52,203 nucleotides of DNA. Origin: Candidatus Omnitrophota bacterium. GTDB lineage: Bacteria; Omnitrophota; Gorgyraeia; Zapsychrales; Zapsychraceae. The notes under the pieces were generated by a model that was given only the letters and a program-made list of their open reading frames with translations, was not told the origin of the DNA and searched no databases. This document shows, one piece after another, positions 29,722 through 52,203 of this stretch; positions within the stretch are counted from its first letter, which is position 1, and every line of letters starts with the position of its first letter. Where the stretch lies: positions 1-52,203 of the forward strand of contig JADFZM010000002.1 in the NCBI GenBank assembly GCA_015232535.1. Reading direction: 5' to 3'. Both the position numbers and the translations under genes were made by a program.

Positions 29722-30390
29722 ATGTTCAATTTTATACTTTACTTTATACTCTTAATTTTAACCTTACTCCCATGCACAGCCCTGGCTGCTCAAGCAGAAT
29801 ATATCCCCATAGCCACATCTGCTTCTGAAGCGCAATCTGTTAAGAATAATCCTACGTTCAAGGAATTTGGAATCTTGACGAGCTATGGCACTGCAAAAGT
29901 AACAGAAAAGGATGATTATGTCACAATACCAATGTTTTTTCGCTTTGGGATTGATTGCGATAAGTTTGGGCTCGGTTATTCAGATTGGATCGAGCGGGGA
30001 GCGAAAGATCTTTTTCACAAAGACTTTCGCCCAAAGGGCACAACAGAGTTTTTGATAGAACCATTTCTCAGTTATGTCCCGAGCCCGGACAGTAACATGG
30101 AAGGCGGAATCATTCTTGCTTTTAAATATGACTGGCCCCTGACAGAAAAGTTTCATACTTACGTATGGAATGGTGGCGGGATAATGTATATTACTCAGCA
30201 TTTACGCGAACAATCAACTCAGTGGAATTTCACTCCGCAGATGGGCGGAGGCTTCAGCTATTTTCTGGATAAAAACAAAGCATTAAGCATTGAATATCGC
30301 CATCGCCATTTCTCAAATGCTAATAAAAGGTTACCAAATGACGGGATAAATCAGGGTTTTATATCAGTTGGCTTTTCATGGTTCTATTGA
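29722..30390 (+). CDS. PagL-like outer-membrane acyloxyacyl hydrolase / lipid A 3-O-deacylase
   Basis: Signal peptide, alternating beta strands, YRHRHFSNA..PNDGIN (H-x-S-N motif), aromatic C-terminus. Confidence 0.8.
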   Translation: MFNFILYFILLILTLLPCTALAAQAEYIPIATSASEAQSVKNNPTFKEFGILTSYGTAKVTEKDDYVTIPMFFRFGIDCDKFGLGYSDWIERGAKDLFHKDFRPKGTTEFLIEPFLSYVPSPDSNMEGGIILAFKYDWPLTEKFHTYVWNGGGIMYITQHLREQSTQWNFTPQMGGGFSYFLDKNKALSIEYRHRHFSNANKRLPNDGINQGFISVGFSWFY

Positions 30391-30397
30391 GGCTTAG

Positions 30398-31132
30398 ATG
30401 ACCGGATCAAAAAATAAACTGGCATTAATCATCGGTGGAAGTCGTGGTATAGGGCGAGCCATTGTTTTACGTTTGGCGCAGGAGGGCTTTGATATCTGGT
30501 TTACCTGCCGTTCTAATATGGAGGCGGCCCAAAAAGTTCAAGCGGAGGTCGAAAAGATCGGCAGGGAGTGCAGGGTCTTTTCTTTTGATATCGCTGATTA
30601 TAACGCGGTCAAGCTGGCTTTGGAAAAACAAGTTGATACGCGCGTTCCAGATGCCGTTGTTTACAACGCGGGCATTTCAAAGGATAACCTTTTTGTTTTT
30701 ATGACGAGAGAGGAGTGGGATTCGGTTTTACATACCAATCTGGATGGATTTTATCATGTAATGCATACAGTAATTTTCCCTATGTTGCGTGAGAAGAGGG
30801 GCAGAATCGTGATTATTGCATCTACATCTGGGGAGATTGGGCAGGCCGGACAGGTCAACTATTCGGCGTCTAAAGCCGGATTAATAGGAGCTGCCAAGGC
30901 TCTGGCGCGAGAAGTAGCGCGTAAAAATATTTTTGTAAATGTTGTGTCTCCCGGGGTCATAGAAACAGAAATGACCAAGGATCTTCCAAAAGACAAAATC
31001 CTTCCGTTGATCCCTTTGCAGCGTTTTGGTTCAGCCGATGAAGTCGCATCCATTGTGGCTTTTTTGTGTACAGAAAAGCACATGTATATTCATGGGCAGG
31101 TAATTGGCGTCAACGGCGGCCTTGCCATCTAA
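30398..31132 (+). CDS. fabG: 3-oxoacyl-ACP reductase
   Basis: GGSRGIG, NAG, GQVNYSASKAG, PGVIETEM, VNGG. Confidence 0.92.
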   Translation: MTGSKNKLALIIGGSRGIGRAIVLRLAQEGFDIWFTCRSNMEAAQKVQAEVEKIGRECRVFSFDIADYNAVKLALEKQVDTRVPDAVVYNAGISKDNLFVFMTREEWDSVLHTNLDGFYHVMHTVIFPMLREKRGRIVIIASTSGEIGQAGQVNYSASKAGLIGAAKALAREVARKNIFVNVVSPGVIETEMTKDLPKDKILPLIPLQRFGSADEVASIVAFLCTEKHMYIHGQVIGVNGGLAI

Positions 31133-31149
31133 CGAAAGCTTTAAACTCC

Positions 31150-32652
31150 ATGGAAAGATATAATTCAATAATTGTTGGGAGCGGAATCAGTGGATTAACT
31201 TTGGCTTTACTTTTAGCTGCTAACGGACGCAAGGTTCTGCTGCTTGAAAAGGCCCCAATCATCGGCGGATGTTTGTCGCGTTTTTATAAGAAGGGAGTTC
31301 CTTTTGATACGGGATTTCATTTTACCGGAGGATTTGTTAAAAACAGAATAATGGAAGATATGCTCAGAGTTTTAGGCATTCGCGACAGCATTCATCCCAT
31401 TCTTCTTGATAAGGAAAGATCTAACCGATTTATTTTTGAAAATGAAGGCCTAAGCCTTGAAATGCCTGCCGGCTTAGAACAATGCTGTGCTAAACTTGAG
31501 AATTATTTTCCTGCACAACGTGTTGCCATAAGAAATTATTTTGAAATGGTTGAGCGGGTTATTCAGTCGACCCCGTCATTTGATTTACGCAAAATCTCTT
31601 TTTCTCCCGAACCCATTGAAGAAGATTACATTAGCCTTCAAAAAGTTTTAGATAGTCTTACCCAAAACCAAACGCTTAAAGCTGCCTTATCGGTTTATTG
31701 TATGTGTTATGGTACTAAGCCTTCTGAGATATCTTTTGCTAATCATGCGCGAGTGTCTATTGGTTTTTATGATTGTTTAACGCGAATAAAAGACGGGGGA
31801 GAAGCCTTTATTCGGGCTTTTTCTCAAGCGTTCAAGAATTATCCGATTATGATCCGGTGCAATACAACCATTCAAGAGTGTCTAGATATTCACGATGGCA
31901 TTGTTGGCCGCGTCCTTCTTTCTGATGGCGAAGAAGTTGCTTTTGATGAATGCATTTTTACCATTCATCCATTTGAAGTTTTGAAAATCATTCCGAAACA
32001 GCATTTTTCTAAAGCATTTTGGGAAAGAGTAGAGTCCTTCGAGCCCTCCAATGGTTTCTTTTCGGTATTTGGGGCAATTGAAGGAGAAAAGGTAGCTGAT
32101 AATTTTGAACCCTCCATCGTGTCGTTATTACCGCATTCTGATATTAATATTTTATTAGACCCTAAGTACATTGGTCCTCAAGCTTTAGCGATCTTTCAAA
32201 GCTTAGAATGCGCTAAGGATAAAACTTTTCATGTTCTTAATGCTTTTGAGCCATCTTTTTTTGAGCAAGTTGCTCCTTGGTCTAACTCAAAAGTCGGCCA
32301 TCGTCCGCAAGGATATACGGATTATAAGAAACAGCGTGTTCAAAGTATTTGCAATCGGATTCAAGGATTCTTTCCTGAATATAAGGATTCATTTCGAATG
32401 TATGACGCTGCCAGCATGTTGACGTTCCGTGATTATCTGTTTTCGCCTGATGGCAGTGCTTATGGGATAAAACAAAAAGTCGGACAATTTAATCTTTTTG
32501 GAAAATTACCTTTACGTAATCTTTATACTGCTGGGCAGAGCGCGGTTCTTCCCGGGATATTGGGAGCCATGTTGTCTTCTTTTGTTATTGCCCGGGCTCT
32601 CGTTGATAAAGATGCGTACAACAATTTTATAAATAAAAGTTTATGTCCCTAA
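31150..32652 (+). CDS. FAD-dependent oxidoreductase (phytoene desaturase/retinol saturase-like)
   Basis: IVGSGISGL, FDTGFHF, GSAYG, NLYTAGQS..PGILGA. Confidence 0.85.
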   Translation: MERYNSIIVGSGISGLTLALLLAANGRKVLLLEKAPIIGGCLSRFYKKGVPFDTGFHFTGGFVKNRIMEDMLRVLGIRDSIHPILLDKERSNRFIFENEGLSLEMPAGLEQCCAKLENYFPAQRVAIRNYFEMVERVIQSTPSFDLRKISFSPEPIEEDYISLQKVLDSLTQNQTLKAALSVYCMCYGTKPSEISFANHARVSIGFYDCLTRIKDGGEAFIRAFSQAFKNYPIMIRCNTTIQECLDIHDGIVGRVLLSDGEEVAFDECIFTIHPFEVLKIIPKQHFSKAFWERVESFEPSNGFFSVFGAIEGEKVADNFEPSIVSLLPHSDINILLDPKYIGPQALAIFQSLECAKDKTFHVLNAFEPSFFEQVAPWSNSKVGHRPQGYTDYKKQRVQSICNRIQGFFPEYKDSFRMYDAASMLTFRDYLFSPDGSAYGIKQKVGQFNLFGKLPLRNLYTAGQSAVLPGILGAMLSSFVIARALVDKDAYNNFINKSLCP

Positions 32653-33875
32653 AAAGAGTTGTTATCACAGGAATAGGTGCAGTATCGCCATTAGGAAGCG
32701 ATTCTCTTGAAATGTCGCAAGGGCTTGAGGCTTCTCTTAGCGCCGTGCAATATATGGAAGGCTGGGATACTTATAAAGGCTTGAGGTGTCTTGTAGCTGC
32801 GCCGGCTAAGGCTAAAGATGAACATCTAATCCCGCGACAGAGCCGCAGGTCCATGGGCTCTATGAGCATTTATTCTGTTCAGGCCGCGCAAGAGGCATTG
32901 AATGACAGCGCGCTTCCAACAGAAATATTAAAGACAGGCCGAGTAGGCTGTATTATCGGTTCCACCATGGGAGGCGCTAAAAGCATTAATGATGTTTATG
33001 AAAATATGGCATCGCAAAGAGATTTAACGCAATTGACCTCGATGAAATTCTTTCAGTGCATGTCTCATACAGCAGCGTTGAATGTTTCCCAATATTTGGG
33101 TATTAACGGCGTTGTTATGGCGACTTCGGCGGCCTGTGCTTCAGGGCTTCAGGCGATTGGGACGGCGTATGATCTTATCCGCTTAGGTTCCCAAGATGTA
33201 ATTTTGTGCGGCGGGGCGGAAGAGCTTCATCCTACTGTTACAGCATCATTCGATATTTTGTTTGCCACTTCAACGAAATATAATGATCGCCCTCAACTAA
33301 CACCACGTCCTTTCGATGCCAATCGTGATGGGCTGGTCTGCGGCGAAGGCGCAGGAATTATTGTGATAGAAAGCTATGAACACGCAATGGCTCGTAGCGC
33401 AAAAATTCATGCAGAGATTATTGGGTATCAAACTTGTGCTAGCGGGTTACATATCAGTCAGTCGAGCAAGGAGGCTTTGGCCTCTTCCATGCGAGGAGCA
33501 TTAGCCGCGGCACAGATAAATTCTAAGGATATTGATTATATTAATGCCCATGCGACGGCAACGCTACAAGGAGACAAGGAAGAGGCGGATGCTATTCGGG
33601 AAATATTTGGAGATAAGGTCCCTGTCTCTAGCCTTAAAGGATATATGGGGCATACCTTAGGTGCTTCAGGCGGCCTTGAATTGATTGCCAGTTTGTTTAT
33701 GATGCGTTCCGGTCGGATTTATCCGACGAAGAATTTAGAAAATGTAGCCGATGATTGCCAGGGTATTTGGCATGTGCAAAAGCCATTAAAGCGACCGCTA
33801 AATTTTATTTTAAAAAACGCATTCGCACTCGGCGGAATTAATGCGTCGATAGTATTGAAAAGGTTGTCTCAATAA
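32643..33875 (+). CDS. Beta-ketoacyl-ACP synthase (FabB/F-type)
   Basis: SAACASG, HATAT, GHTLGA (Cys-His-His triad). Confidence 0.92.
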   Translation: MSLKRVVITGIGAVSPLGSDSLEMSQGLEASLSAVQYMEGWDTYKGLRCLVAAPAKAKDEHLIPRQSRRSMGSMSIYSVQAAQEALNDSALPTEILKTGRVGCIIGSTMGGAKSINDVYENMASQRDLTQLTSMKFFQCMSHTAALNVSQYLGINGVVMATSAACASGLQAIGTAYDLIRLGSQDVILCGGAEELHPTVTASFDILFATSTKYNDRPQLTPRPFDANRDGLVCGEGAGIIVIESYEHAMARSAKIHAEIIGYQTCASGLHISQSSKEALASSMRGALAAAQINSKDIDYINAHATATLQGDKEEADAIREIFGDKVPVSSLKGYMGHTLGASGGLELIASLFMMRSGRIYPTKNLENVADDCQGIWHVQKPLKRPLNFILKNAFALGGINASIVLKRLSQ

Positions 33876-33900
33876 AATTAGTTGGATAAGGGAAGGAGAA

Positions 33901-34176
33901 ATGATGATCAAAGAAGAAGTCATAAAGAGAATTAATAAAGTCTTCGAGAAGGACTTTGAAATTGATCTGAAGAGGCTTAAGCCAGATGCGCAAATTTTTA
34001 ATGATTTAGGCCTCGATAGTTTGGATATTGTGGACCTGGTCGTGGCCCTGCAGAAAGAGTTCAGCGTTACTATCCGGGATGACGCGCGAGTTCGTAATAT
34101 CCGGACCCTTAATGACATTTATGATTTTATTCTTCTGCTGGGCGAAGAGAGAAAAAAGGAGAATATTAAGGAATAA
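33901..34176 (+). CDS. Acyl carrier protein
   Basis: DLGLDSLD; AAGGAG RBS. Confidence 0.92.
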   Translation: MMIKEEVIKRINKVFEKDFEIDLKRLKPDAQIFNDLGLDSLDIVDLVVALQKEFSVTIRDDARVRNIRTLNDIYDFILLLGEERKKENIKE

Positions 34177-34931
34177 TGTTGACGTTAAAAAAGTTAATCC
34201 TCAATACTGCTTTTTATCTTTTTTTCTTTTTGTTAACTATTCTTTATACCGTGGTTTTAACATTATTGATGATAGGGGTTAGAGTTCTTTCTTCTGATCA
34301 TGAGGTTAATAGGCAATTGCGTTTAGGCATTCGCTGGTATGGACGTATACTTATTTGGGTCTTGCCTCAGCCCTTTTTAAAGGTAAAATATACTAATAAA
34401 TCTCGTCAAGAAAATAAGGATTTACCTTGCATTGTCATTTGCAATCACCGGTCATCATCAGACCCATTTTTAATGGCTTGCCTATCATTTGACTTGATTC
34501 AGATCGTAAATAAATGGCCTTTTAGGATCCCGTTCTTAGGTTGGGTTGCGCGTTTGTCAGGATATTTGAGTGTGAATGAGATGTCGTTTGAGGAATTTAG
34601 ATATCGCTGTGGAAATATTTTAGATCAAGGCGTTTCTGTTGTGGCTTTTCCGGAAGGGACTCGCTCCGGATCTAGAGCAATGGGACAATTTCGCAGTGCG
34701 ACGTTTCGTATCGCGCTTGAGAAAAAAGTTCCGATTGTGCCGCTATGTATAACAGGCAATGAAGATAAACCCCTACGCGGTTCTTTTTGGCTGAATCCCG
34801 GCACGATCCTTATTCACAAATTGCCCCCAGTTCCATACGAAGAATTTAAGGATTTTAGTCCGTTTAAGCTTAAGAACTACATCCGAGATATTATTGAACG
34901 CGAAACAAAAGTAATGGATTCCCAGAAATGA
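34176..34931 (+). CDS. Lysophospholipid acyltransferase (PlsC-like)
   Basis: NHRSSSD (HxxxxD), FPEGTRS, N-terminal TM helix. Confidence 0.88.
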   Translation: MLTLKKLILNTAFYLFFFLLTILYTVVLTLLMIGVRVLSSDHEVNRQLRLGIRWYGRILIWVLPQPFLKVKYTNKSRQENKDLPCIVICNHRSSSDPFLMACLSFDLIQIVNKWPFRIPFLGWVARLSGYLSVNEMSFEEFRYRCGNILDQGVSVVAFPEGTRSGSRAMGQFRSATFRIALEKKVPIVPLCITGNEDKPLRGSFWLNPGTILIHKLPPVPYEEFKDFSPFKLKNYIRDIIERETKVMDSQK

Positions 34932-36223
34932 AATCATTTGAGCATTATCAAAAAAGTTCATTCTTAGAACTTAGTGCTAGGCAAAAAATACAAACTCAAT
35001 TATTACGTCAGCACATGACGTATTGTAATAAATCGTCTCCGTTTTATCGTCAACTTTTTAAAAAACATGGGGTGGTTCCCGAATCGGTCAATTTAGATAA
35101 TTTGCAGGATGTTCCATTTACGGATAAACATTGCTTGGAGCGTTCTAATAAATCATTTATAGCAGTTTCACAAGAAAGTGTAGCGGATATTGTCTTATCT
35201 AGCGGCACCACGGGCGCTCCGACAAAAATAGTTTATTCTCAAGGAGACCTGGAGCGATTAGCTTATAATGAACGTCAATCATTGGCGTCTTGCGGCCTAA
35301 ATGCTCACGATCGTGTTCTTTTAACCTGTACCATCGATCGTTGTTTTATTGCTGGATTGGCTTATTATTCCGGGGCAAGAGCTCTTGGGGCCGCATGCAT
35401 ACGCAATGGTTTAAATTCTCTGGAAAGCCACGCGGGAATTATCAAATTAATGAACCCGACTGTTATTGTTGGTGTCCCATCATTCTTGCGGAAACTGGGT
35501 AATTTTGTCTCGCATCAGAAGATTTCCGTCGCTAGCGTCAAGAAGCTTGTTTGCATCGGGGAGCCTTTAAGGAATATTGACATGCAAAAGTTGACACTTC
35601 TAGAAGATATCGAGAAAATCTGGAAAGCCAAAGCGTACTCAACTTATTCTTCCTCGGAAATAGTTACTACTTTTTGTGAATGCGAAAGACAAAATGGCGG
35701 GCATTTGCATCCGGAATTAGCAGTTGCTGAAATTGTGGATGAGAGAGGGCGCCGGGCTAGTGCAGGCGCTGCCGGAGAATTAGTGGTAACACCCTTAGGA
35801 ATTGAAGGAATGCCTTTAGTGCGTTTTCGCACAGGAGATATTAGCTTTATGATAGATGAGCCTTGCGCTTGTGGCCGTAAAAGTCCGCGCTTAGGGCCTA
35901 TCTTAGGGCGAAAAAAACAAATGCTTAAGATAAAAGGAACGACTGTTTATCCTTTGGCTGTTTTTTCTGCCCTTGATAATATCTCTGAGATAAGCGATTA
36001 TTTTATTACGGTATTTTCTCAGGATGCTCTTTCTGACCGATTGACAGTGACTGTTTCCTTGCGTTATTCCTGTTCAGTTCGTAGAATTAGTGAAGTTTTG
36101 GCTGCAAGTTTACGAGTAGCCCCGGAAGTTGTGATAGCTTCCGAAGAAGAAGTACGCCGTGTTGTTTATAATCCATCTTTACGGAAACCTGTTCGATTTT
36201 TTGATAGGAGAAAAAAGGTATGA
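34928..36223 (+). CDS. Phenylacetate-CoA ligase-like AMP-binding enzyme
   Basis: SSGTTGAP, YSSSE, RFRTGD, CACGR. Confidence 0.88.
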   Translation: MKSFEHYQKSSFLELSARQKIQTQLLRQHMTYCNKSSPFYRQLFKKHGVVPESVNLDNLQDVPFTDKHCLERSNKSFIAVSQESVADIVLSSGTTGAPTKIVYSQGDLERLAYNERQSLASCGLNAHDRVLLTCTIDRCFIAGLAYYSGARALGAACIRNGLNSLESHAGIIKLMNPTVIVGVPSFLRKLGNFVSHQKISVASVKKLVCIGEPLRNIDMQKLTLLEDIEKIWKAKAYSTYSSSEIVTTFCECERQNGGHLHPELAVAEIVDERGRRASAGAAGELVVTPLGIEGMPLVRFRTGDISFMIDEPCACGRKSPRLGPILGRKKQMLKIKGTTVYPLAVFSALDNISEISDYFITVFSQDALSDRLTVTVSLRYSCSVRRISEVLAASLRVAPEVVIASEEEVRRVVYNPSLRKPVRFFDRRKKV

Positions 36224-37710
36224 GCACCTGTGGGAAAATCCCTAATCGATTCGAATTTTCTCAGCACGATATTGAAGAAGCGGTTCGCTCCGGTCAACTT
36301 TTATCTGCAGAGATAGAATTAAGCCTAAAATGCAATTTGCGCTGTCAATATTGCTATGTTTCTACGACAGCTGACCAGAACAATGAGCTTACGGGAAAAG
36401 AAATCCGCGATGTAATTCTTCAAGCGCATGATTTAGGTGCGCGTAAGATTATTATTCTTGGCGGAGAGCCATTAATTTATCCGCGAATTATTGAAAAAAT
36501 AGAATTCATTCGCGCTCATGGAATGCAGGTAGAATTATTTACTAATGGTCTTATGGTAACGCCTGCTATGGCGCGTCGATTATTTGAGCTTGGTGTAAAT
36601 GTTGTAATAAAAGTTAATTCTTTTAAAGATGACGTTCAAGATAAAATTGTTGGTATGCCGGGGGCTTCCAAAAAGATGAGGGCAGCGCTGGTGAACCTTA
36701 AGGGAGCAGGATACCCTTATGGAGCCGGATTCTTAGCCGTGAGCACAATTATTTGCCGGGAAAATTTTTCTGAACTTATAGATTTATGGGTTTGGATTCG
36801 AGACCAGGGAATTCTGCCTTATTTTGAAATCTTAACCCCTCAAGGAAGGGCTTCAGAGAATGATTGGCTTAATGTCGGGGCTGCCGATCTCGAAGATTTA
36901 TTTTATAAAATAAGTGAGATAGACCGAACACGTTATAACCAAATCTGGGATCCTCAGCCGCCTCTTGTCGGAGGGAAATGCTTGCGCCATCGTTTTTCTT
37001 GTTTAATCAATGCCCAAGGCTTTGTTATGCCGTGTGTCGGGGTAAACATTCCAATCGGAAATATTAGGGAGAAAAAACTCAAGGACATCCTAAGAGAAAG
37101 CGAGATTGTCCAAGATCTTAGATATTATCACGATAAAATTAAAGGACCTTGCGGCAAGTGCGACAAAGCCGATGATTGTTATGGTTGCCGAGGGGCTGCT
37201 TATCAATTGACTGGTGATTATTTAGCTTCGGACCCTTTATGTTGGAAGAATTTATCGCTTTCTGAAGATATTGCAAAGCTCCCTATTTTAGTTAATGAAT
37301 TTATTCCCCACGGAAAGCCCATGTGTTTGGTTGATCGCTTGATAAAGCAAGGGGAACGAAGCGCCGAAGTCGAGACCACAATAAGAAGAGATATGCCTTT
37401 TGTGGACGAAAATGGTTTATTAGAAGAGGTTGGATATTTAGAAATGATTGCCCAGGCCACTGCAGCTATGAGAGGGTTTAAGCAGTATGGGATAACGAGT
37501 AATAAGCAAGAGGGTTTTCTTTCAGGGGCAAAGGATTTTGAGATTTTTGAACGCGCACGCGTAGGAGATGTTCTCGTTACGTCTGTATTTAAATATGCCA
37601 AATTTGAGGATATTGGTGTCATTAAGGGAACTATCCACCGCGGATCTTCTTTGCTAGCGCAGGGTGAGATAAAAGTTTGGCAGAAGTCAGCCAAGGAGAA
37701 AATAGCATGA
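36220..37710 (+). CDS. Radical SAM/SPASM protein fused to a C-terminal hotdog (ApeP-like dehydratase) domain
   Basis: CNLRCQYC, GGEP, SPASM cysteines CGKCDKADDCYGCR..DPLC; then IPHGKPMCLVD..EMIAQATAA. Confidence 0.85.
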   Translation: MSTCGKIPNRFEFSQHDIEEAVRSGQLLSAEIELSLKCNLRCQYCYVSTTADQNNELTGKEIRDVILQAHDLGARKIIILGGEPLIYPRIIEKIEFIRAHGMQVELFTNGLMVTPAMARRLFELGVNVVIKVNSFKDDVQDKIVGMPGASKKMRAALVNLKGAGYPYGAGFLAVSTIICRENFSELIDLWVWIRDQGILPYFEILTPQGRASENDWLNVGAADLEDLFYKISEIDRTRYNQIWDPQPPLVGGKCLRHRFSCLINAQGFVMPCVGVNIPIGNIREKKLKDILRESEIVQDLRYYHDKIKGPCGKCDKADDCYGCRGAAYQLTGDYLASDPLCWKNLSLSEDIAKLPILVNEFIPHGKPMCLVDRLIKQGERSAEVETTIRRDMPFVDENGLLEEVGYLEMIAQATAAMRGFKQYGITSNKQEGFLSGAKDFEIFERARVGDVLVTSVFKYAKFEDIGVIKGTIHRGSSLLAQGEIKVWQKSAKEKIA

Positions 37711-44103: not shown

Positions 44104-44135
44104 GTATTCGCTCATATGGGATAAGAAGTCTATTT

Positions 44136-44178
44136 CAGGCTTCGGCGGAGTGAGCGGAGCGCTGGTATAAAACAGTAA
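44136..44178 (+). repeat. Degenerate copy of the ketosynthase 3' end (43344-43387)
   Basis: CAGGCTTCGGCGGAGTGAGCGGAGCGCTGGTAT-AAAACAGTAA vs CAGGATTCGGCGGAGTAAACGCGGCGCTGTTATTAAAACAATAA, 36/44 identical by hand. Confidence 0.75.
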
Positions 44179-44192
44179 AAAAGGAGGCGCAG

Positions 44193-44861: not shown

Positions 44862-44874
44862 ACAGAAGATTTCC

Positions 44875-45429
44875 ATGATAAAAGGACACGGTTGGATAAA
44901 AGAGGGGCAATGCGGCTGTAGCCAGAAAGGCCTTTTGTGGCAGTATACCGATCTGCGGTCATTATGCGCCGAGCTGCTTGAATGTGCCGTACTTGCTTAT
45001 CCTGTAGAAAATTTTGCCAGGTTTGATGCCGCTTCGCGTCTCGTTGCTATATCAGTGGCTTTGGCTTTAAATGACGCTAGTATCCCTTATTCCAAAGGGA
45101 AGAAACAGGATATTGGAATACTTGGCACGAATACTGACGGAGCGCTGGATTCAAATCTCTCCTACTTTCGAGATTATGTGGCAGCGGGAAGAAAACTTGG
45201 GCGGGGAAACTTTTTTATCTATACTTTGGCATCAAGCCCGTTGGCAGAATCGGCAATCCATTTCGGGTTGCAGGGGCCGGCATTTTATATGCGGAATTTG
45301 GAAAATCCGGAAGAAAATTTATTAGCCCAGGGTGAATTGATGGTACGAAATAAAGCAGCCCAAACTATATTGGCGGTTTCTTTTGGAACAAAAGAGGCTG
45401 CCTGTAAATGTATTCAAGAAACAATATGA
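44875..45429 (+). CDS. Truncated non-catalytic ketosynthase / chain-length-factor-like protein
   Basis: FARFDAASRL, FIYTLASSP, FGLQGP; no catalytic Cys. Confidence 0.75.
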   Translation: MIKGHGWIKEGQCGCSQKGLLWQYTDLRSLCAELLECAVLAYPVENFARFDAASRLVAISVALALNDASIPYSKGKKQDIGILGTNTDGALDSNLSYFRDYVAAGRKLGRGNFFIYTLASSPLAESAIHFGLQGPAFYMRNLENPEENLLAQGELMVRNKAAQTILAVSFGTKEAACKCIQETI

Positions 45430-46688
45430 AGGTAAAACTTATATATCCCAAATGGCCTAAACTTGCCTTTCAGCCTGAATTTAATTTGCCGCCTCATGGG
45501 CCTATCTGTTTCGCGGCTGCCTTGCCGCGGGACATTGACATTGTCTTTTGTGACGAGAACGTGGAAGATTTAACGATCGATCGGGACGAAGATCTGGTTT
45601 TTATTTCATGCATGTTGACTTGTCAGATCGCTCGCGGCTGGGAAATTGCTGACCAATACCGTGCTATTGGCAAGAAAGTTATTTTTGGCGGCATTGCAGT
45701 TATGTTACATTACGAAGAAACGTTGCCTCATGCGGACGCTGTTTTCTTAGGGGAAGCCGAAGGACACATTGGGAAAGTATTTCAAGATTTTGAGCGCGGC
45801 GCATTGAAGAAGATTTACAATTTTATGAATGATTACCCTGACACCGCATTGATTGGATCTGCCAGAAGAGATATCTTAAAACACGAGCTATATAATTTTC
45901 GTGGCGTGCAAATGGTGGACCTGGTTCATGCTTCGAGGGGATGTAAGTTTAATTGTTTTCCCTGCTGCACCCCTTTTTTAGGCGGAAGGAAATTTCGCCC
46001 TCGCCCAATTGATAAAGTTGTTGAAGAATTAAGAAGTATTCCTAACAATCGTCTCTTTTTGGTTGATAATTCATTGGCGCAAGATGATCAATGGGAAAAG
46101 GATCTTTTTCAAGCGATGATACCCTTGAAAAAGAAATGGGTGTCACATCCGATTAAAGATGACGATGAGATCCTAGATTTGGCAGTTAAGGCTGGATGTT
46201 GGTATGTATATCAGGCTATTTTTGATACATCAGATTATATAAGGCGGCGCGTAAAACGTCTTAAAGAAAGGGGAATCGGTGTTGAAGGGACAATTATTTT
46301 AGGAACTGACGATCATGATGAGGATTATATAAAGAGGCTCGTTGATTTTCTTCTGGATATCGATCTTGATTTGGCGGAATTTACTATTTTAACTCCATTT
46401 CCTCATTCTCCGATTCGTTCAAAGCTGGAAAAAGAGAATCGGATTATTCATAATGACTGGTCTCGGTATACCGCCGGAGAAGTTGTTTTTAAACCTGCGA
46501 AGATGACCGAAGAGGCTCTATCGAAAATGTATGAATACGCTTGGAAAACTTTTTATGCTAGCTGTTGTAAAGAGGTTAAGATGGCAAAACTTTATTTAAG
46601 TATTATGCAGCGGGAGAAACAGGACGGAACTTATCAACATGTGCGCTTACGTAATTCTCGAGGATGGGAGTCACCTGTTAAAAGATGA
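45426..46688 (+). CDS. Cobalamin-binding radical SAM protein
   Basis: DENVE, GGIA, GEAE, SRGCKFNCFPC, TPFPHSP. Confidence 0.88.
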   Translation: MKVKLIYPKWPKLAFQPEFNLPPHGPICFAAALPRDIDIVFCDENVEDLTIDRDEDLVFISCMLTCQIARGWEIADQYRAIGKKVIFGGIAVMLHYEETLPHADAVFLGEAEGHIGKVFQDFERGALKKIYNFMNDYPDTALIGSARRDILKHELYNFRGVQMVDLVHASRGCKFNCFPCCTPFLGGRKFRPRPIDKVVEELRSIPNNRLFLVDNSLAQDDQWEKDLFQAMIPLKKKWVSHPIKDDDEILDLAVKAGCWYVYQAIFDTSDYIRRRVKRLKERGIGVEGTIILGTDDHDEDYIKRLVDFLLDIDLDLAEFTILTPFPHSPIRSKLEKENRIIHNDWSRYTAGEVVFKPAKMTEEALSKMYEYAWKTFYASCCKEVKMAKLYLSIMQREKQDGTYQHVRLRNSRGWESPVKR

Positions 46689-48061
46689 AAATTGTTCTTA
46701 TTTCTGCTAATACCGCCCAAACACCTTATCCGGTGTATCCTCTTGGCATGGGAATTGTTGCCAAGGCTCTCCTGGACGCAGGGCACCAGGTCGTGCAATT
46801 CGATTTTCTTCATTCCGGCCAGTCGTTTGAGAAATTAACTCAAGTTTTACTATCACAGATGCCGGATCTTGTTGGGATATCTATCCGTAATATTGATAAT
46901 GTGAATTTGGCCAGTGAACAGCATTATATAGGCACCGTTCGCCAGATTGTCCTAGCGGTACGTTCTTCAGTAAAAGTACCGATTGTTTTAGGCGGTGCCG
47001 GTTTTTCCATTATGCCGGAAACTATTCTTGATGCTGTCGGAGCAGATTATGGGATTGTCGGAGAATCTGAGTCCGCGGTTGTTGATTTCGTGGCGGACAT
47101 AGAGGGTGGGAAACGTCCTGATAGATGTATTCGAGCTCATAATTTAGTCGCACCTAAGAACATTGGCAGCGCTCAGTATGATTCGGATATCATAAAATTT
47201 TATCTTAAATATGGCAATATGGTTGGCATGCAGACAAAGCGCGGATGCATTCATAAATGTGTTTATTGCACATATCCGCTACTTGAAGGGAGAATTTTCC
47301 GGCCCCGTCCAGCTGTCGATGTTGTGGACGACATTGAAGTATTGATTAAAGACCATCATGCCGGGTATATTGTTTTTACTGATTCTATATTTAATGACGA
47401 CCAAGGGCTTTTTTTGAATGTTTTACATGAAATGAAACGTCGTAGGTTATCGGTGCCATGGACCGGATTTATAAAGCCAGGCAATATTCTTGAAGAGCAT
47501 GTGCTTTTGATGAAAGAAACTGGTCTTAAGGCGGTCGAAATAGGTTCGGATGCGGCATCAGATATTGCGTTAAAAGGGATTGGAAAAGATTTTCTTTTTA
47601 AGGATATCATATCGGCTAATGATATTTTTGTCAGAAACGGTGTAGCCACAGCACATTTTTTTATGTTTGGCGGCCCCGGGGAAACGAAAGATTCCGTGAT
47701 GGAAGGAATCGAAAATATTATTGCGCTTCCGGGGACAGTTTCTTTTATGTTCATGGGGATTCGTATTTTGCCGGAAACTCCTTTGGAAAAAATTGCGTTA
47801 AGGGACGGGGTAATTGAGCCGGGACGGGACTTGTTAGAATCCGTTTATTATATTTCTCCGGCTCTTGACCGACAATGGCTTGAGAAGACCATGCTAGAGG
47901 GTTTTAAAGACCATCGATGTTGTTTCTTTCCGGCGGATAAATTTGAATCAAGCATAAAATTTCTTCATCAGATGGGATATTCGGGGTCTTTGTGGGAAAT
48001 GTTGTCACCGAACAAAATGCGAAGATCGCAAAGATCGATTCATCCTATGCAAAAAGGATAG
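46685..48061 (+). CDS. Lipid-biosynthesis B12-binding/radical SAM protein
   Basis: PYPVYPLG, SIRNIDNVN, KRGCIHKCVYCTYP, FGGPGET, GIRILP. Confidence 0.85.
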   Translation: MKIVLISANTAQTPYPVYPLGMGIVAKALLDAGHQVVQFDFLHSGQSFEKLTQVLLSQMPDLVGISIRNIDNVNLASEQHYIGTVRQIVLAVRSSVKVPIVLGGAGFSIMPETILDAVGADYGIVGESESAVVDFVADIEGGKRPDRCIRAHNLVAPKNIGSAQYDSDIIKFYLKYGNMVGMQTKRGCIHKCVYCTYPLLEGRIFRPRPAVDVVDDIEVLIKDHHAGYIVFTDSIFNDDQGLFLNVLHEMKRRRLSVPWTGFIKPGNILEEHVLLMKETGLKAVEIGSDAASDIALKGIGKDFLFKDIISANDIFVRNGVATAHFFMFGGPGETKDSVMEGIENIIALPGTVSFMFMGIRILPETPLEKIALRDGVIEPGRDLLESVYYISPALDRQWLEKTMLEGFKDHRCCFFPADKFESSIKFLHQMGYSGSLWEMLSPNKMRRSQRSIHPMQKG

Positions 48062-48074: not shown

Positions 48075-49274
48075 ATGATTACAGAAGATTCAAAAAAAGC
48101 GAATATTCCTTTAGATTTTATATGGTGCGTTATCCCGGTTTATAATAACGCTGCCACGGTATATAAAGTTGCTGTCGGTTGCCGAAAGCGCCTTCATAAT
48201 GTTCTGGTTGTTGATGACGGCTCAACAGATACAAATGTGCCTGAGTTGTTTGCCCAAACGGACATTCATGTTTTGCGGCATGATACTAATCGCGGCAAAG
48301 GCGCGGCATTGATCACGGCTCTGAATTATATTCATGCTCACAGCGGAATGTTTATGATCACAATTGATGCGGATGGCCAACATTACCCTGAAGATATACC
48401 TTCTTTTATAGAAAATTTGCATGAGTCAACAATCCTTATTGGTAGTCGCGACTTTACAGTAGTCAATGTTCCTGGCACAAGTAAGTTCGGGCGAAAATTC
48501 TCAAACTTTTGGCTTCATATAGAAACGGGAGCGGAGGTTGCTGATACGCAAAGTGGTTTTCGTGCTTATCCGGTAGGATATTTAAAAAAATTGATATTTT
48601 CTACGAGTTATTATGATTGGGAAGTTGAGGTCCTGGCGCGTTGTGTGTGGGCGGGGCTTACAATCAAGTCTATACCAATAAATGTTTTTTATCTTCCTGG
48701 AAGAGCTCGAATTTCTCATTTTCGCCCTTTCCTTGACAATTTACGTATAACGCTATTACATTGTCGATTGATCGGACGAATCCTTTTGCCTATACCGCAT
48801 AAACAGCTTGTGCCAAAAACGAAAAAGAATGAAATTAATATGCAATTGTTCAAGGACCCAAGACATTTCTTCCAGGGGCTTTTGGCGGAGCATGCCACGC
48901 CAGTTGGGCTTGCGGCATCGGCGTTTGTTGGTATTTTTTTAGGCGTATTACCGCTATTATCGGTGCATATGGTGGTTATTCTTTATGTGGTTAGCCGGCT
49001 TCATTTAAACAAAGTAATGGCACTTGCCATTCAAAATATTTGTATGCCGCCATTTGTTCCGGTAGTTTGTATTGAGATTGGCCATTATTTGCTCTATCGT
49101 GAGTGGATTACTGAAGTATCATTACGCGTGATCTTTTGGCAGTTTAAAGATAGAATTTGGGAATGGCTGGTCGGTTCTTTAGTTGTAGCCCCGCTTTTGG
49201 CGATTTTTATCGCAATTATTGTATTTATTATTTCATCGCGTTTTCATAAGGAGCGCTTAGCCCGTGCAACCTAA
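48075..49274 (+). CDS. GT2 glycosyltransferase with C-terminal DUF2062-like membrane domain
   Basis: IPVYNN, VDDGSTD, DADGQH, DTQSGFRAYP, SHFRPFLD; hydrophobic C-terminus. Confidence 0.88.
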   Translation: MITEDSKKANIPLDFIWCVIPVYNNAATVYKVAVGCRKRLHNVLVVDDGSTDTNVPELFAQTDIHVLRHDTNRGKGAALITALNYIHAHSGMFMITIDADGQHYPEDIPSFIENLHESTILIGSRDFTVVNVPGTSKFGRKFSNFWLHIETGAEVADTQSGFRAYPVGYLKKLIFSTSYYDWEVEVLARCVWAGLTIKSIPINVFYLPGRARISHFRPFLDNLRITLLHCRLIGRILLPIPHKQLVPKTKKNEINMQLFKDPRHFFQGLLAEHATPVGLAASAFVGIFLGVLPLLSVHMVVILYVVSRLHLNKVMALAIQNICMPPFVPVVCIEIGHYLLYREWITEVSLRVIFWQFKDRIWEWLVGSLVVAPLLAIFIAIIVFIISSRFHKERLARAT

Positions 49275-50181
49275 TGTTTCCATGTGTGTCGGCCAAAAAA
49301 TAGAAGTGAAGCATCGCGGTAACGCTTTAGGCTTCTGGTTTTTTCGCCAAACCTTAGGGGTTTTTGGTTTGAGGGGAGCATATTTTTTGTTATCTGGAGT
49401 GGCGCTTCATTATCTTTTGTTTGACATTGACGCTCGTCGGCAGGCTATGAGTTATGTGCGGCATCGTTTTCCGTCAGACGGGTTTTTACAAAATGTTAAT
49501 GCTGTTTATCGCATTTTTATTAGTCAAGGACGCCATTTAATTGATCACTTTGCTTCATTAACCGGGACGGTTGATTTTGATATGATGTTGGAAGGCAAAG
49601 AGATTATCAAGAAGGTTAGCGACGCTAAAGAAGGGTGTATTTTACTTACTTCGCATTTCGGTAATTGGCAAATTGCGATGCCTGCTTTTGCCCAAGTCAA
49701 CAAGAAGGTTTATCTTGTTATGCGACCCGAAGATAATCAAGCGGTCGCTCAATCGTTAGGGATTGGCCGGGAAAGTTCGCAAATCCATTTGATTTCGCCC
49801 GAGGGCAATTTGGGAGGAGCCATTGAAATTGTTAAAGCGGTTCAAGAAGGCGCTGTTGTTTCAATGATGGGCGATCGTCGCTATGGATTTGATAGTGTTA
49901 AAGTCCCTTCCTTTTTAGGCCAACCGGCCTTTTTCCCTTACGGGGCCTTTGTCATTGCCGCCACTTGTCAAGTTCCAGTAATTGTCTTTTTATCCGTGAA
50001 AACAGGGGATAGAAAATATACGGTGGATATTTCTCGGGTGATCTATCCTTCTTATAAAGAAGGTAAACCAAAAAAAGATCAATTGACAGAATGGGTTCAG
50101 GAATACGTTGGGGTTCTAGAAGAGTTTGCCCAAAAGTACCCGTATCAATGCTTTTTATTTCATGATGTTTGGAAAACATAA
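49264..50181 (+). CDS. LpxL/LpxP-like lipid acyltransferase
   Basis: GTG start; TSHFGNWQ, MGDR, FLG..AFFP, YPYQCFLFHDVW. Confidence 0.8.
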   Translation: MQPNVSMCVGQKIEVKHRGNALGFWFFRQTLGVFGLRGAYFLLSGVALHYLLFDIDARRQAMSYVRHRFPSDGFLQNVNAVYRIFISQGRHLIDHFASLTGTVDFDMMLEGKEIIKKVSDAKEGCILLTSHFGNWQIAMPAFAQVNKKVYLVMRPEDNQAVAQSLGIGRESSQIHLISPEGNLGGAIEIVKAVQEGAVVSMMGDRRYGFDSVKVPSFLGQPAFFPYGAFVIAATCQVPVIVFLSVKTGDRKYTVDISRVIYPSYKEGKPKKDQLTEWVQEYVGVLEEFAQKYPYQCFLFHDVWKT

Positions 50182-50194
50182 TAACGGAGGATAT

Positions 50195-50473
50195 ATGGAT
50201 CAAAAAGAACAAGAGCTGTCAGAAATTCGAAAGAAATTAAAAGAATTAATTGTTACAGGCCTTTCATTGGAAGGGGTTGACCCGAAACTTATCAAAGACG
50301 ACGAAATTCTCTTCGGCGAAGGGCTGGGTTTAGATTCTCTAGACGCTGTTGAAATTGTTGTTCTTTTGCAGCGCAATTGGGGATTGGAAGTAAAGGATAT
50401 GAAAGAAGGGCAGAAGGCCTTTTCCTCCATCAATACCCTAGCGAATTATGTTTATGATCACATTAAGAAATAA
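50195..50473 (+). CDS. Acyl carrier protein (aryl-polyene type)
   Basis: LFGEGLGLDSLDAVE; GGAGG RBS. Confidence 0.92.
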   Translation: MDQKEQELSEIRKKLKELIVTGLSLEGVDPKLIKDDEILFGEGLGLDSLDAVEIVVLLQRNWGLEVKDMKEGQKAFSSINTLANYVYDHIKK

Positions 50474-50480
50474 TTGAAAT

Positions 50481-51647
50481 ATGCCAGTGAAACCGGTTGT
50501 TATTAGTTCAATGGGCGCAATTTGCGCGGCTGGAAAGACGACTTTGGAGATTATCTCGACATTCGAATCCTACCGTCGAAATCCAGGCCTCCCGACTATC
50601 TTTGAATCTTCGCTGGATTTTCCTGTCTTTGAGGTTAAGAAATTTTCACATCCTCCAGAAATTATGCGAACTTTGGCGCTTGCTTATGTTGCCTTAGATG
50701 AAGCTATATCGGACGCGGGGCTAGATGGAAGCCTTAAAGGATCAAGGGTGGGAATTTGTATGGGGACCACGGTTGCCAGTCAACTTAACGATGAATCTTG
50801 GTATCGGAGATATTGTATTGAAAATAAAATTTATCCTGAACCGATCGATAAATATTTTAAAGGAAATCTGGCTGAAGCACTAGCTCTTCGCTTAGGAATT
50901 TTGGGTCCAGCATTAACAATTGTGAATGCATGTTCTTCTGGCGCGGATGCTATAGGGGTAGCAATGGATTGGCTTTCAACAGGGATTTGCGATATTGTCA
51001 TTGCCGGTGGGGCTGATGAGATTAATCATATTCCTTATTGTGGTTTTGGCGCATTGAGCGTTACAAGCTCATTGCCATGCAAACCTTTTGATAAGAATAG
51101 GAATGGTTTGAATTTAGGCGAGGGGGCAGGTATTTTAATTTTAGAGACAGAAGCGTCTGCGGTAAGGCGCTCAAGGAAGCCGGATCTTTTTGTTTCCGGT
51201 TATGGCGCGGCTGCGGATGCGTATCATCTGACAGCGCCACGGCCCGATGGCTCCGGCCTGGCGAAAGCGATTGATATGGCTTTTACTCAAGCCGGACTAA
51301 AAGCGCAAGACATAGCTTTTGTTAATGCTCACGGCACCTCGACTCGGGATAATGACCTGGCGGAAGGTCGCGCGTTACTGCGAATTTTTGGACAAGATCT
51401 CAAATTTCTTTCAACCAAAGGTTTTACCGGGCATACTCTTGGCGCAGCAGGTGCGTTAGAAGCTATTTTTATTGCTCTCGCTTTGCGCCATGGCTGGATA
51501 CCAGGCAATATTGGATTTGAAGAAACGGACGAAGAAATAGGAATTGCTCCGGTAATGAAGAAGACCTCTGTTGGGGGGAAAGCTGCCCTCTCAACGTCAT
51601 TAGCTTTTGGGGGAAACAATGCGGCTTTGATCGTTTCAAGATGCTAA
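50481..51647 (+). CDS. Beta-ketoacyl-ACP synthase
   Basis: NACSSG, HGTST, GHTLGA, AFGGNNA. Confidence 0.92.
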   Translation: MPVKPVVISSMGAICAAGKTTLEIISTFESYRRNPGLPTIFESSLDFPVFEVKKFSHPPEIMRTLALAYVALDEAISDAGLDGSLKGSRVGICMGTTVASQLNDESWYRRYCIENKIYPEPIDKYFKGNLAEALALRLGILGPALTIVNACSSGADAIGVAMDWLSTGICDIVIAGGADEINHIPYCGFGALSVTSSLPCKPFDKNRNGLNLGEGAGILILETEASAVRRSRKPDLFVSGYGAAADAYHLTAPRPDGSGLAKAIDMAFTQAGLKAQDIAFVNAHGTSTRDNDLAEGRALLRIFGQDLKFLSTKGFTGHTLGAAGALEAIFIALALRHGWIPGNIGFEETDEEIGIAPVMKKTSVGGKAALSTSLAFGGNNAALIVSRC

Positions 51648-52203
51648 TGCATATTAATGGAATCGGTATTATTTCGCCAGTTGGTCGCGGCCTAGAAGTT
51701 CATCGTCAGGCTTTGGCTAATGCTTCTTTGCCGGCTGTTGTTGATGGGTTTCATCGAGTTTCCGAAAAGGACCTGAAAGATCCTTGTCTGGCCAAGGATG
51801 CTCGGCGAGCAGGCCGATTCGACCGTATAGCAATTTTGGCTGGGATGGATGCTCTTAAAGATGCAGGGATCTGTTTGGATATAGATTCGCCACAAATTGG
51901 CCTGATTTTGGCTACAAGCTTTGGGCCACATTCAACAACCTTTCGTTTTCTAGATGACCTTTTGAATTTCAAAGAAAAAGATGTTTCGCCAACACTCTTT
52001 TCTCATTCTGTTCACAATGCCGCAGCGTCTTATTTATCACTTCTGGCTCGCATACAAGGGCCCACATTAACTGTTACGCGTTTCTTTTTTGCATTTGAGG
52101 AGGCGCTGTCTTTGGCGTGTTCTTGGCTTGAGCAGCAAAGATGCAAGCATGTTTTGGTTGGCGCCGTTGATGAATTAGGGTCTGTGATGGAACAGATTAT
52201 TCG
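51647..52203 (+). CDS. Chain-length-factor-like ketosynthase N-terminal domain (partial, runs off the window)
   Basis: Own translation: MHINGIGIISPVG..RRAGRFDRIA..VSPTLFSHSVHNAAASY..GPTLTVTRFF (no Cys)..VLVGAVDE; absent from the ORF track because it has no stop. Confidence 0.8.
   Translation, partial: MHINGIGIISPVGRGLEVHRQALANASLPAVVDGFHRVSEKDLKDPCLAKDARRAGRFDRIAILAGMDALKDAGICLDIDSPQIGLILATSFGPHSTTFRFLDDLLNFKEKDVSPTLFSHSVHNAAASYLSLLARIQGPTLTVTRFFFAFEEALSLACSWLEQQRCKHVLVGAVDELGSVMEQII

Follow-up and report, generated by a model that had tools for sequence, protein, structure and literature searches.

A 31-gene ladderane-type relative of aryl polyene clusters with three radical SAM proteins in a Candidatus Omnitrophota genome

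Our analysis of a 52,203 nucleotide (nt) stretch of Candidatus Omnitrophota DNA (assembly GCA_015232535.1, contig JADFZM010000002.1, positions 1 to 52,203, hereafter the window) revealed a 31-gene operon for a dedicated lipid synthase. The cluster is a member of the widespread, uncharacterised "ladderane-type" relatives of aryl polyene (APE) and flexirubin clusters. We regard it as probable that an APE-like type II synthase makes an unsaturated chain carried by an acyl carrier protein (ACP), which would be modified by radical S-adenosylmethionine (SAM) enzymes, anchored to a lipid and exported to the outer membrane. Membership in the group follows from ketosynthase (KS), ACP and dehydratase genes that are clustered with genes for a B12 radical SAM enzyme and a phytoene-desaturase-like flavoenzyme.

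Clusters of this kind have been in print since 2009. Rattray et al. (2009; PMC2649909) described clusters for fatty acid synthesis of type II (FAS II) from Kuenenia that contain phytoene-desaturase-like genes and genes for SAM radical enzymes; the synteny with Desulfotalea psychrophila was striking, and Geobacter and Pelobacter have comparable clusters. Geller-McGrath et al. (2023; PMC9902471) listed antiSMASH "ladderane" clusters, reported as expressed and of unknown function, in metagenome-assembled genomes (MAGs) of Omnitrophota, Desulfobacterota and other phyla. An earlier sequence-only reading of the window had put the locus forward as an undescribed system, a claim that these two publications overturn. 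The ladderane radical SAM enzyme is still treated as uncharacterised in two 2026 reviews (PMC13459092, PMC12931638) and in a 2026 preprint on amxFabF, and our literature search, mostly at the level of abstracts, retrieved no paper naming a product of the non-anammox clusters. New here are the complete 31-gene anatomy in Omnitrophota, the recognition of an unannotated gene for a 184-aa protein as that of a second chain-length-factor-like partner, and the finding that the supposed second B12 enzyme (g18) shows the highest conservation in the cluster and is nearest to AprD4 in fold. The family is among the largest conserved sets of lipid or secondary metabolite operons in anaerobes without a known product, and it shares enzymes with the unsolved ladderane pathway.

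The operon and its synthase

The window comprises the first 52,203 of the 59,368 bases of its contig. A block of type II secretion system (T2SS) and pilus genes ends at 29,451 and a run of plus strand genes begins at 29,665/29,722, the first position being the start of the longest open reading frame (ORF) of g01 and the second its Met20, where the signal peptide starts. From 29,722 the operon extends to about 58,410, with all 31 genes on the plus strand and about 6.2 kb past the window end on the same contig. Its 30 junctions comprise 18 overlaps, 10 gaps of 0-30 nt and two larger gaps (194 and 44 nt), which bears out the tightly coupled single operon proposed earlier. Promoter and terminator scans yielded counts comparable to those of shuffled sequence (29 observed vs 34.6 shuffled and 18 vs 17.3 in 29300-46000; 24 vs 20.1 and 15 vs 10.8 in the downstream locus) and were therefore of no help with the operon limits. 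In the closest relative (genome G219) the last ligase gene is followed by unrelated genes, namely those for an FG-GAP protein, a PAP2 phosphatase and transporters as well as phosphonate genes, and the cluster end is therefore placed at g30 or g31. A run of 97 N bases (C133 52204-52300) lies inside the chain length factor gene g24; since the frame is correct across the run, it represents masked sequence and not a scaffold gap of arbitrary length.

The cluster is not a chance assembly, because its gene order was found again in 17 other loci of two phyla, and the locus is a genuine operon for a dedicated fatty acid or polyketide synthase of type II. Its synthase is separate from the housekeeping fatty acid synthase, since two further FabF genes (480 and 391 bits) are located on contig C158 and FabD on contig C130. 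The genes inside the window are listed below; family calls are based on Pfam and NCBIfam profiles, with scores in bits against the curated cut-offs where two values are given.

g01, 29722-30390 (+): outer-membrane beta-barrel with signal peptide, PagL-like (lipid A 3-O-deacylase family); PF09411 45.5 bits vs 23
g02, 30398-31132 (+): FabG-type ketoreductase, ApeQ/FlxB-like; adh_short_C2 175 bits, NF004200 296 vs 273, FlxB 285 vs 340
g03, 31066-32652 (+): FAD enzyme of CrtD/phytoene-desaturase/amine-oxidase type; PF13450, PF01593, TIGR02733 (CrtD) 88 bits vs 550
g04 (KS1), 32643-33875 (+): full-length FabF/FabB-like ketosynthase in ApeR-like position, Cys165-His-His; PRK09116 439 bits vs 470
g05 (ACP1), 33901-34176 (+): acyl carrier protein, DSL serine motif; PF00550
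g06, 34176-34931 (+): PlsC-type (lysophospholipid) acyltransferase; PF01553 76 bits, TIGR00530 domain
g07, 34928-36223 (+): adenylate-forming ligase of PaaK/FlxY type in ApeH-like position; FlxY 446.5 bits vs 520, PaaK 151-157 bits
g08, 36220-37710 (+): radical SAM and SPASM protein (residues 1-345) fused to an ApeP-like hotdog dehydratase (346-496); PF04055, PF13186
g09, 37677-38360 (+): LolA-like periplasmic carrier, ApeL-like; PF03548 47.5 bits, LolA2_flexi 96.7 vs 125
g10, 38353-40725 (+): MMPL/RND-type exporter, ApeM-like; PF03176, HAE3 and HpnN below cut-offs
g11, 40700-41383 (+): lipobox lipoprotein, weakly DUF3261-like, in ApeN-like position; PF11659 E 0.002, below cut-off
g12, 41399-41773 (+): ApeI/FabZ-like hotdog dehydratase subunit; PF22818 26.8 bits vs 28.5, PF07977 25.3 vs 23
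g13, 41664-42269 (+): 4HBT/YbgC-type thioesterase, ApeK-like, its true start probably later than the longest-ORF start; PF13279 55.9 bits, TIGR00051 56.8 vs 68.7
g14 (KS2), 42257-43387 (+): ketosynthase with shortened N-terminal half, Cys139-His-His; best PDB match 9s5h_B 187.7 bits
g15, 43402-43998 (+): lipobox lipoprotein, no Pfam/NCBIfam family; paralogue of g25 (same loci matched)
g16, 44193-44861 (+): lipobox lipoprotein, no Pfam/NCBIfam family
g17, 44875-45429 (+): truncated 184-aa protein resembling chain length factors, N-terminal half of the KS fold, without the active-site Cys
g18, 45408-46688 (+): radical SAM protein with N-terminal Rossmann (B12-binding-like) domain, CxxxCxxC at 179; PF02310 32.0 bits vs 32.1, Radical_SAM 24 vs 29.5
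g19, 46685-48061 (+): cobalamin-dependent radical SAM enzyme, TIGR04072 (rSAM_ladder_B12); 600.3 bits vs 360
g20, 48075-49274 (+): family 2 glycosyltransferase (GT2) fused to a DUF2062 membrane domain, in ApeJ-like position; PF00535 63 bits, PF09835 48.9 bits
g21, 49264-50181 (+): LpxL/HtrB-type (lipid A late) acyltransferase family; PF03279 82.9 bits, NCBIfam LpxL models below cut-offs
g22 (ACP2), 50126-50473 (+): acyl carrier protein, DSL motif; PF00550
g23 (KS3), 50481-51647 (+): ketosynthase in ApeO-like position, Cys151-His-His; best PDB match 9s5h_B 214 bits, Xenorhabdus doucetiae ApeO 6qsp_A 159 bits
g24, 51641-52203 (+; continues past the window end, with 280 aa on the contig): chain length factor, ApeC-like, no Cys at the KS active-site column; PF13723

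The arrangement of the synthase genes is that of APE clusters, which combine a KS and chain length factor (CLF) pair with a further KS: KS3 is followed by the PF13723 protein g24, which has no Cys, and KS1 is a further full-length KS. As in these clusters the dehydratase is split into an ApeI-like subunit (g12) and an ApeP-like one (the C-terminal domain of g08), and the export set of a LolA-like carrier, an MMPL/RND pump and a DUF3261 lipoprotein is present, the last of these with a weak match. The parallel with APE scaffold and export genes drawn from the sequence is thus supported by FlxY (446 bits), FlxB (285) and LolA2_flexi (97) matches together with the ApeI-like, ApeP-like, DUF3261 and MMPL assignments. 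The earlier gene counts agreed with ours for three KS with a Cys-His-His triad (g04, g14, g23), for two CLF-like proteins without the Cys (g24 by PF13723, g17 by a profile match), and for the two ACPs, FabG, thioesterase, ligase, FAD oxidoreductase, two acyltransferases, GT2, MMPL, LolA and lipoproteins, all of which were found on the plus strand.

Judged by profile comparison and a complex model, g17 is a second CLF-like protein and the partner of KS2. It has no Pfam match, and a PDB search with the single sequence gave nothing significant (best E 0.63). A profile of 10 sequences, by contrast to the single sequence, matched the CLF family (hhalign 95.3%, E 2.3e-8) and, among PDB entries, FabF (E 2.8e-4). 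The gene follows KS2 in 9 of 9 Omnitrophota-type loci that span the position; among the Desulfobacterota loci with KS2 this holds for 7 of 9. Modelled as a complex, KS2 and g17 reached an interface score (ipSAE) of 0.95, against 0.00 for the best of three controls, with contacts agreeing between runs to at least 96% and a partner confidence (pLDDT) of at least 92; of the solved complexes 58 of 80 come up to this mark, and of the mismatched pairs 2 of 110. Solved KS/CLF dimers exist, and the passing of the model may therefore only mirror that likeness.

The radical SAM proteins

All three radical SAM proteins (g08, g18 and g19) carry the CxxxCxxC motif. g19 is a full member of TIGR04072, covering model positions 1-441 of 443 with CxxxCxxC at residue 188, and its neighbours are KS, ACP and acyltransferase genes, the lipid-synthesis neighbourhood expected of a TIGR04072 member. 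This family is tied to candidate ladderane clusters and their deltaproteobacterial counterparts (PMC2649909), and the ladderane signature that had been recognised from the sequence is confirmed in this respect. The nearest characterised families of g19 are BzaD (202 bits) and TsrM (129 bits), with PDB 6wte at 116 bits. When g19 is aligned with TsrM, Arg69 is kept (Arg68), Glu236 corresponds to Tyr197 and Glu273 to Ile235. In TsrM, Glu273 occupies the unique iron of the cluster (PMC12931638); because g19 has no counterpart of this SAM-blocking residue, SAM binding and cleavage would be expected, and g19 probably binds and cleaves SAM, unlike TsrM. A polar methylation of the TsrM kind was considered for g19 and is weakened by the absent glutamates.

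The sequence-only reading had counted two B12 radical SAM enzymes, which stands for g19 but only marginally for g18. With 47.5 bits against the cut-off of 360, g18 is not a member of TIGR04072, and its PF02310 match falls just below the cut-off. It is the most conserved protein of the cluster (mean column identity 74% in 18 sequences), with 71-84% identity within the phylum and 59-64% to Desulfobacterota copies, compared to 39-45% for g19. An AlphaFold2 (AF2) model of g18 (pLDDT 82, predicted TM score (pTM) 0.82) is closest in fold to AprD4 (6fd2, TM 0.75), followed by the methylase MgmA (PDB 9ccb) and TsrM with TM 0.62-0.66; MgmA is referred to as QCMT in PMC12931638. The same review sets AprD4, a radical SAM diol dehydratase, apart from true B12 enzymes as "unrelated", and the "B12" label of g18 is therefore unproven.

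The third protein, g08, had been described as a SPASM radical SAM protein. The PF13186 and PF04055 domains are indeed present (CxxxCxxC at 38, eight Cys between 254 and 341) but do not stand alone, as an ApeP-like dehydratase domain is fused to the C-terminus. This domain (150 aa) retains the FabZ-type dehydratase motifs with His (363) and Glu (408) and matches PDB 6qsr_B, with E 1.8e-17 for a profile of 16 homologues; we take 6QSR to be the X. doucetiae ApeI:ApeP complex. After 6qsr_B the profile matched amxFabZ structures (E ~2-5e-9; PDB codes as stated in the data-availability section of PMC10139942) and then FabZs. The fusion is common: among the best 120 of 2,441 database relatives of g08, 119 carry PF13186, PF04055 and PF22817. 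At the g08 position the dehydratase domain is free-standing in genomes G090 and G124 and in 8 of 10 Desulfobacterota loci. Judging from the fusion, the radical enzyme of g08, if no other, would act on the chain during elongation, while it is bound to the carrier protein.

Further genes of this type were observed elsewhere. Six Desulfobacterota loci (G497, G495, G424, G400, G453, G335; L054-L065) carry a third B12-radical-SAM-like gene after the TIGR04072 gene, with 19-23% identity to g18 or g19, which is absent from the cluster in the window. Weak TIGR04072-like matches occur in 301 of 301 genomes of the host phylum, which is rich in such paralogues.

Distribution of the cluster and neighbouring genes

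TIGR04072 proteins above the cut-off were found in 9 of the 301 genomes of the host phylum (G000 counted), in none of six genomes of the same family, in none of 14 controls and in 37 of the 201 genomes of Desulfobacterota, the phylum of a Desulfobacteraceae MAG described below. The nearest named contigs by g19 are Candidatus Omnitrophota MAGs with 77% and 74% identity. In G219, 27 of the 31 proteins are encoded in the same order with 46-88% identity. The whole gene order also occurs in G227, G196, G090, G124, G256 and G279 (the last a short contig) and on two named MAG contigs, the core gene order occurs in all 10 Desulfobacterota loci with TIGR04072 that were examined, and G234 holds a rearranged, more distant version. 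Wherever the locus of a relative spans the g03 position, g03 is kept; the position of g11 is also conserved among relatives, homologues of g01 are in the same position in G219 and G227, and g16 is present in G196, G090 and G256. Language-model look-alikes of g16 are lipoproteins without a name, of which 12% carry PF03923. For experiments, Desulfobacterota in culture that share the gene order are better suited than the uncultured host, and the locus brings the product no nearer.

In a tree of g19 homologues, 8 of 10 Omnitrophota rows and the contig of the Desulfobacteraceae MAG form one clade (SH-aLRT 100) beside Desulfobacterota clades. The tree was built by a quick method from 31 rows, three of which (Omni_G227, L034, L039) were retained with very long, unreliable branches, probably due to a wrong reading frame or the neighbouring gene having been picked, and therefore only the well-supported Omnitrophota clade is used here. 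The Desulfobacteraceae MAG contig (L004, RPRI01000096.1), whose g19 homologue nests within the Omnitrophota clade, may reflect a recent transfer or may be an Omnitrophota contig assigned to the wrong bin. At 3262-4346 of this locus the ligase gene and the radical SAM core of g08 are missing, while the SPASM part and the dehydratase are in frame. The sister genomes G090 and G124 (L021-L024) show a minimal version, without the SPASM domain and g18 and with a stand-alone dehydratase and the TIGR04072 gene. A co-variation of the SPASM domain of g08 with g18, suggested by their joint absence from these two genomes, was dropped, since g18 is present in 10 of 10 Desulfobacterota loci without the SPASM domain; G090 and G124 being sister genomes, the joint loss counts as a single event.

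Past the window end the operon continues with seven further genes (g25-g31, contig coordinates). With these genes, including a third ACP, a condensation-fold enzyme, a flavoenzyme and a second ligase, the downstream part called for by the sequence-only reading has been retrieved.

g25, 52528-53109 (+): secreted protein
g26 (ACP3), 53124-53363 (+): acyl carrier protein
g27, 53360-54688 (+): free-standing condensation-fold HxxxD enzyme of 442 aa, no family
g28, 54709-55299 (+): lipoprotein
g29, 55312-56505 (+): FAD oxidoreductase; PF12831
g30, 56502-57926 (+): AMP-binding ligase
g31, 57802-58410 (+): Sbal_3080-family lipoprotein

A PDB search with the single g27 sequence gave nothing significant (best E 0.89). 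According to its AF2 model (pTM 0.77, pLDDT 69), g27 has the condensation fold of nonribosomal peptide synthetases (NRPS): the top Foldseek match is AzeD (8s6l, E 2.4e-20), followed by NRPS C and E domains, and the HxxxD motif is invariant. The module of ACP3, condensation enzyme, FAD enzyme and ligase is present in G219, G196, G090, G256 and G279. In G219, phosphonate genes (L018 16295-18744; a fusion of phosphoenolpyruvate mutase and cytidylyltransferase, and a thiamine pyrophosphate decarboxylase) lie about 6 kb after the cluster, and the contig of the window stops before the equivalent region.

Upstream of the cluster the window contains a block of envelope-sugar genes:

6318-7493: DegT-type aminotransferase
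9456-10556: GT9 heptosyltransferase
13036-14118: glycosyltransferase resembling monogalactosyldiacylglycerol (MGDG) synthase

Another B12-binding/radical SAM protein of 506 aa (PF02310 59 bits, PF04055 68 bits) is encoded in this block at 3068-4588 (+). A lone gene at 19031-20227 (-), between the gene for glyceraldehyde-3-phosphate dehydrogenase (GAPDH) and the T2SS/pilus ATPase genes, encodes a right-handed beta-helix/NosD-like protein with DUF5123.

Proposed pathway, alternatives and comparison with known clusters

In the pathway that we propose, the PaaK/FlxY-like ligase g07 would activate a carboxylic acid starter and load it onto ACP, and KS3 with g24, KS2 with g17 and the stand-alone KS1 would extend the chain with malonyl units. 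The chain would be processed by the FabG-type enzyme g02 and the two-part dehydratase (g12 and the ApeP-like domain of g08) and, because no enoyl reductase is encoded among the 31 cluster genes according to Pfam and NCBIfam calls, it should stay unsaturated. The radical SAM enzymes are predicted to act on the chain while it is still bound to the carrier protein. Most likely g19 would add a methyl group or form another carbon-carbon bond, methylation being our first guess for the radical step, and the AprD4-like g18 and CrtD-like g03 might perform further redox or dehydration steps. The thioesterase, the PlsC-type and LpxL-type acyltransferases and the GT2-DUF2062 protein would then place the chain on a lyso-lipid or glycolipid anchor, and MMPL protein, LolA-like carrier and lipoproteins would carry the product to the outer membrane. 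The clade-specific module with ACP3, the condensation-fold enzyme, the flavoenzyme and the second ligase could add a second acid via an ester or amide bond. In view of the present analysis, the radical-modified acyl chain on an exported, outer membrane glycolipid that had been suggested from the sequence appears reasonable.

Several observations weigh against this pathway. The flavoenzymes could act as reductases and give a saturated chain. All flexirubin equivalogs score under their cut-offs (FlxY 446.5 vs 520, FlxB 284.7 vs 340, LolA2_flexi 96.7 vs 125), and the ApeI-like and ApeP-like Pfam matches of the window proteins are below gathering scores. The likeness of KS3 to X. doucetiae ApeO is moderate (159 bits), and KS2 and KS3 are each nearer to PDB 9s5h_B, a heterodimeric KS entry that is a candidate amxFabF heterodimer of unconfirmed identity. 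An assignment of KS3 to an "ApeO type" and of KS2 to an "anammox type" was therefore dropped, as the two share 9s5h_B as best match and the pairs are not assignable to "APE" and "anammox" types. g19 keeps the sub-corrin Arg of TsrM, an enzyme that does not methylate by a radical route. The ACP3 module was not found in the spans fetched from 10 Desulfobacterota loci and may therefore serve a separate function. Finally, no source of an aryl starter was detected in the 83%-complete genome by searches for PF00221 ammonia-lyases, PF04345 UbiC and PF01947 (Rv2949c-type), the XanB2 type not having been searched, and an "aryl" polyene is therefore unsupported.

The last point bears directly on an alternative in which the locus is an ordinary APE/flexirubin-type pigment cluster, with a cobalamin radical SAM enzyme in place of the ApeB-type methyltransferase and a methylated aryl polyene as product. 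Pfam and NCBIfam calls identified no class I methyltransferase among the 31 genes, as this would predict, and BzaD and TsrM, the nearest characterised relatives of g19, methylate sp2 carbons of aromatic rings (PMC12931638). Such a cluster would leave the second KS/CLF pair, g18, the CrtD-like enzyme and the radical SAM-dehydratase fusion unexplained, and g19 is without counterparts of the two TsrM-specific glutamates. Together with the failure to find an aryl-starter enzyme in the 83%-complete genome this makes a methylated aryl polyene improbable, although we grant it a modest share of the expectation.

The flavoenzymes and radical SAM proteins can also be read as parts of the anaerobic route to polyunsaturated fatty acids (PUFA) or hydrocarbons that Rattray et al. 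(2009) proposed for Desulfotalea and Kuenenia; a largely saturated chain would be made first, and CrtD-like flavoenzymes together with radical SAM enzymes would then insert double bonds. Syntenic clusters are present in D. psychrophila, in which polyunsaturated hydrocarbons and no ladderanes were found (PMC2649909), and the present cluster encodes two flavoenzymes (g03, g29) along with three radical SAM proteins. No enoyl reductase is encoded that would give the saturated precursor, however, and the KS/CLF pairs, the split ApeI/ApeP-type dehydratase and the LolA/MMPL export genes are hallmarks of polyene-lipid clusters. The link between hydrocarbons and cluster in Desulfotalea was, in the wording of the paper itself, never tested (PMC2649909). 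We consider this route unlikely.

The envelope genes invite a further explanation, namely that a special acyl chain is made for, and moved to, lipid A or another envelope glycolipid in a remodelling of lipopolysaccharide (LPS). A PagL-like barrel, an LpxL-family acyltransferase and a GT2 are encoded in the cluster, and upstream there are LPS-type sugar genes (the DegT aminotransferase, GT9 heptosyltransferase and MGDG-synthase-like enzyme listed above). The pilus and T2SS genes separate these sugar genes from the cluster, though, the LpxL NCBIfam models score far under their cut-offs (58 bits vs at least 248), and no PagL-like gene was found in the Desulfobacterota loci. APE-type clusters as a rule include transferases of the LpxL and PlsC types, which likewise counts against lipid A remodelling, and we put little faith in it.

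A more far-reaching idea concerns the conserved core of a KS with its half-KS partner, the split dehydratase (fused here to a SPASM radical SAM domain), the AprD4-like protein, the TIGR04072 enzyme and the CrtD-like flavoenzyme, which is common to Omnitrophota and Desulfobacterota and, in a reduced version, to anammox Cluster I. It is conceivable, if rather far-fetched, that this core represents an assembly line that forms carbon-carbon bonds by radical chemistry, closing rings or cross-linking, on a polyene that is bound to ACP and still being elongated, which would lead to a ladderane-related carbocyclic lipid. If so, its cultured carriers would offer a genetic handle on ladderane-type chemistry that anammox bacteria lack.

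True ladderane synthesis, with fused cyclobutanes, in a non-anammox bacterium of the Planctomycetes-Verrucomicrobia-Chlamydiae (PVC) group is very improbable: the TIGR04072 member does adjoin a PDH-like flavoenzyme, an active KS with an inactive KS-like partner, a FabZ-like dehydratase and an ACP, which is the Cluster I gene set (2026 amxFabF preprint), and the profile of the dehydratase domain matches amxFabZ (E ~2e-9), but ladderanes are reported from anammox bacteria only, with none in D. psychrophila despite its syntenic cluster (PMC2649909), the family occurs widely in Desulfobacterota (37 of 201 genomes), g17 amounts to a half-protein of 184 aa where amxFabFmut is full length, and the link between Cluster I and ladderanes is presented without experimental demonstration (2026 amxFabF preprint).

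We return to the APE-like synthase of a radical-modified, exported lipid for the comparison with known systems. With the APE clusters of E. coli, X. doucetiae and Acinetobacter baumannii and the flexirubin clusters of Bacteroidota the locus shares the KS/CLF heterodimer and second KS, a FabG-type ketoreductase, the split ApeI/ApeP-type dehydratase, an adenylating starter enzyme, a thioesterase, two acyltransferases, a GT2, the export set of LolA-like, MMPL and DUF3261 proteins and the lack of an enoyl reductase. It differs from them by the second KS/CLF pair, the CrtD-like flavoenzyme and the three radical SAM proteins, which are extra, and by the ApeB-type methyltransferase and the aryl-starter enzyme, which were not found (83%-complete genome). 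As for single enzymes, g19 shares with BzaD and TsrM, a tryptophan 2-C-methyltransferase, a cobalamin-binding Rossmann domain and a radical SAM barrel; the sub-corrin Arg is kept, whereas g19 has Tyr and Ile in place of TsrM glutamates 236 and 273.

The gene content can also be compared with that of two other groups. Clusters of the type described by Rattray et al. share with the locus the TIGR04072 protein, a CrtD/PDH-like flavoenzyme, several FabF paralogues, some of them inactive, a phenylacetyl-CoA-ligase-like gene, a glycosyltransferase and a membrane protein of the MMPL type. Compared with the spans fetched from Desulfobacterota, only the Omnitrophota-type clade has the SPASM protein fused before the ApeP-like dehydratase, the PagL-like barrel and the module of ACP3, condensation enzyme, FAD enzyme and ligase. 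Anammox Cluster I (KustE3603-3608) consists of amxACP, amxFabZ, amxFabF2, amxFabFmut, a PDH-like enzyme plus a B12 radical SAM protein, and the same six kinds of protein are encoded here. In contrast to Cluster I, the partner of KS2 is a 184-aa half-KS and not a mutated FabF of full length, the host does not belong to the anammox bacteria, and the six-protein module is embedded in a 31-gene APE-like export cluster.

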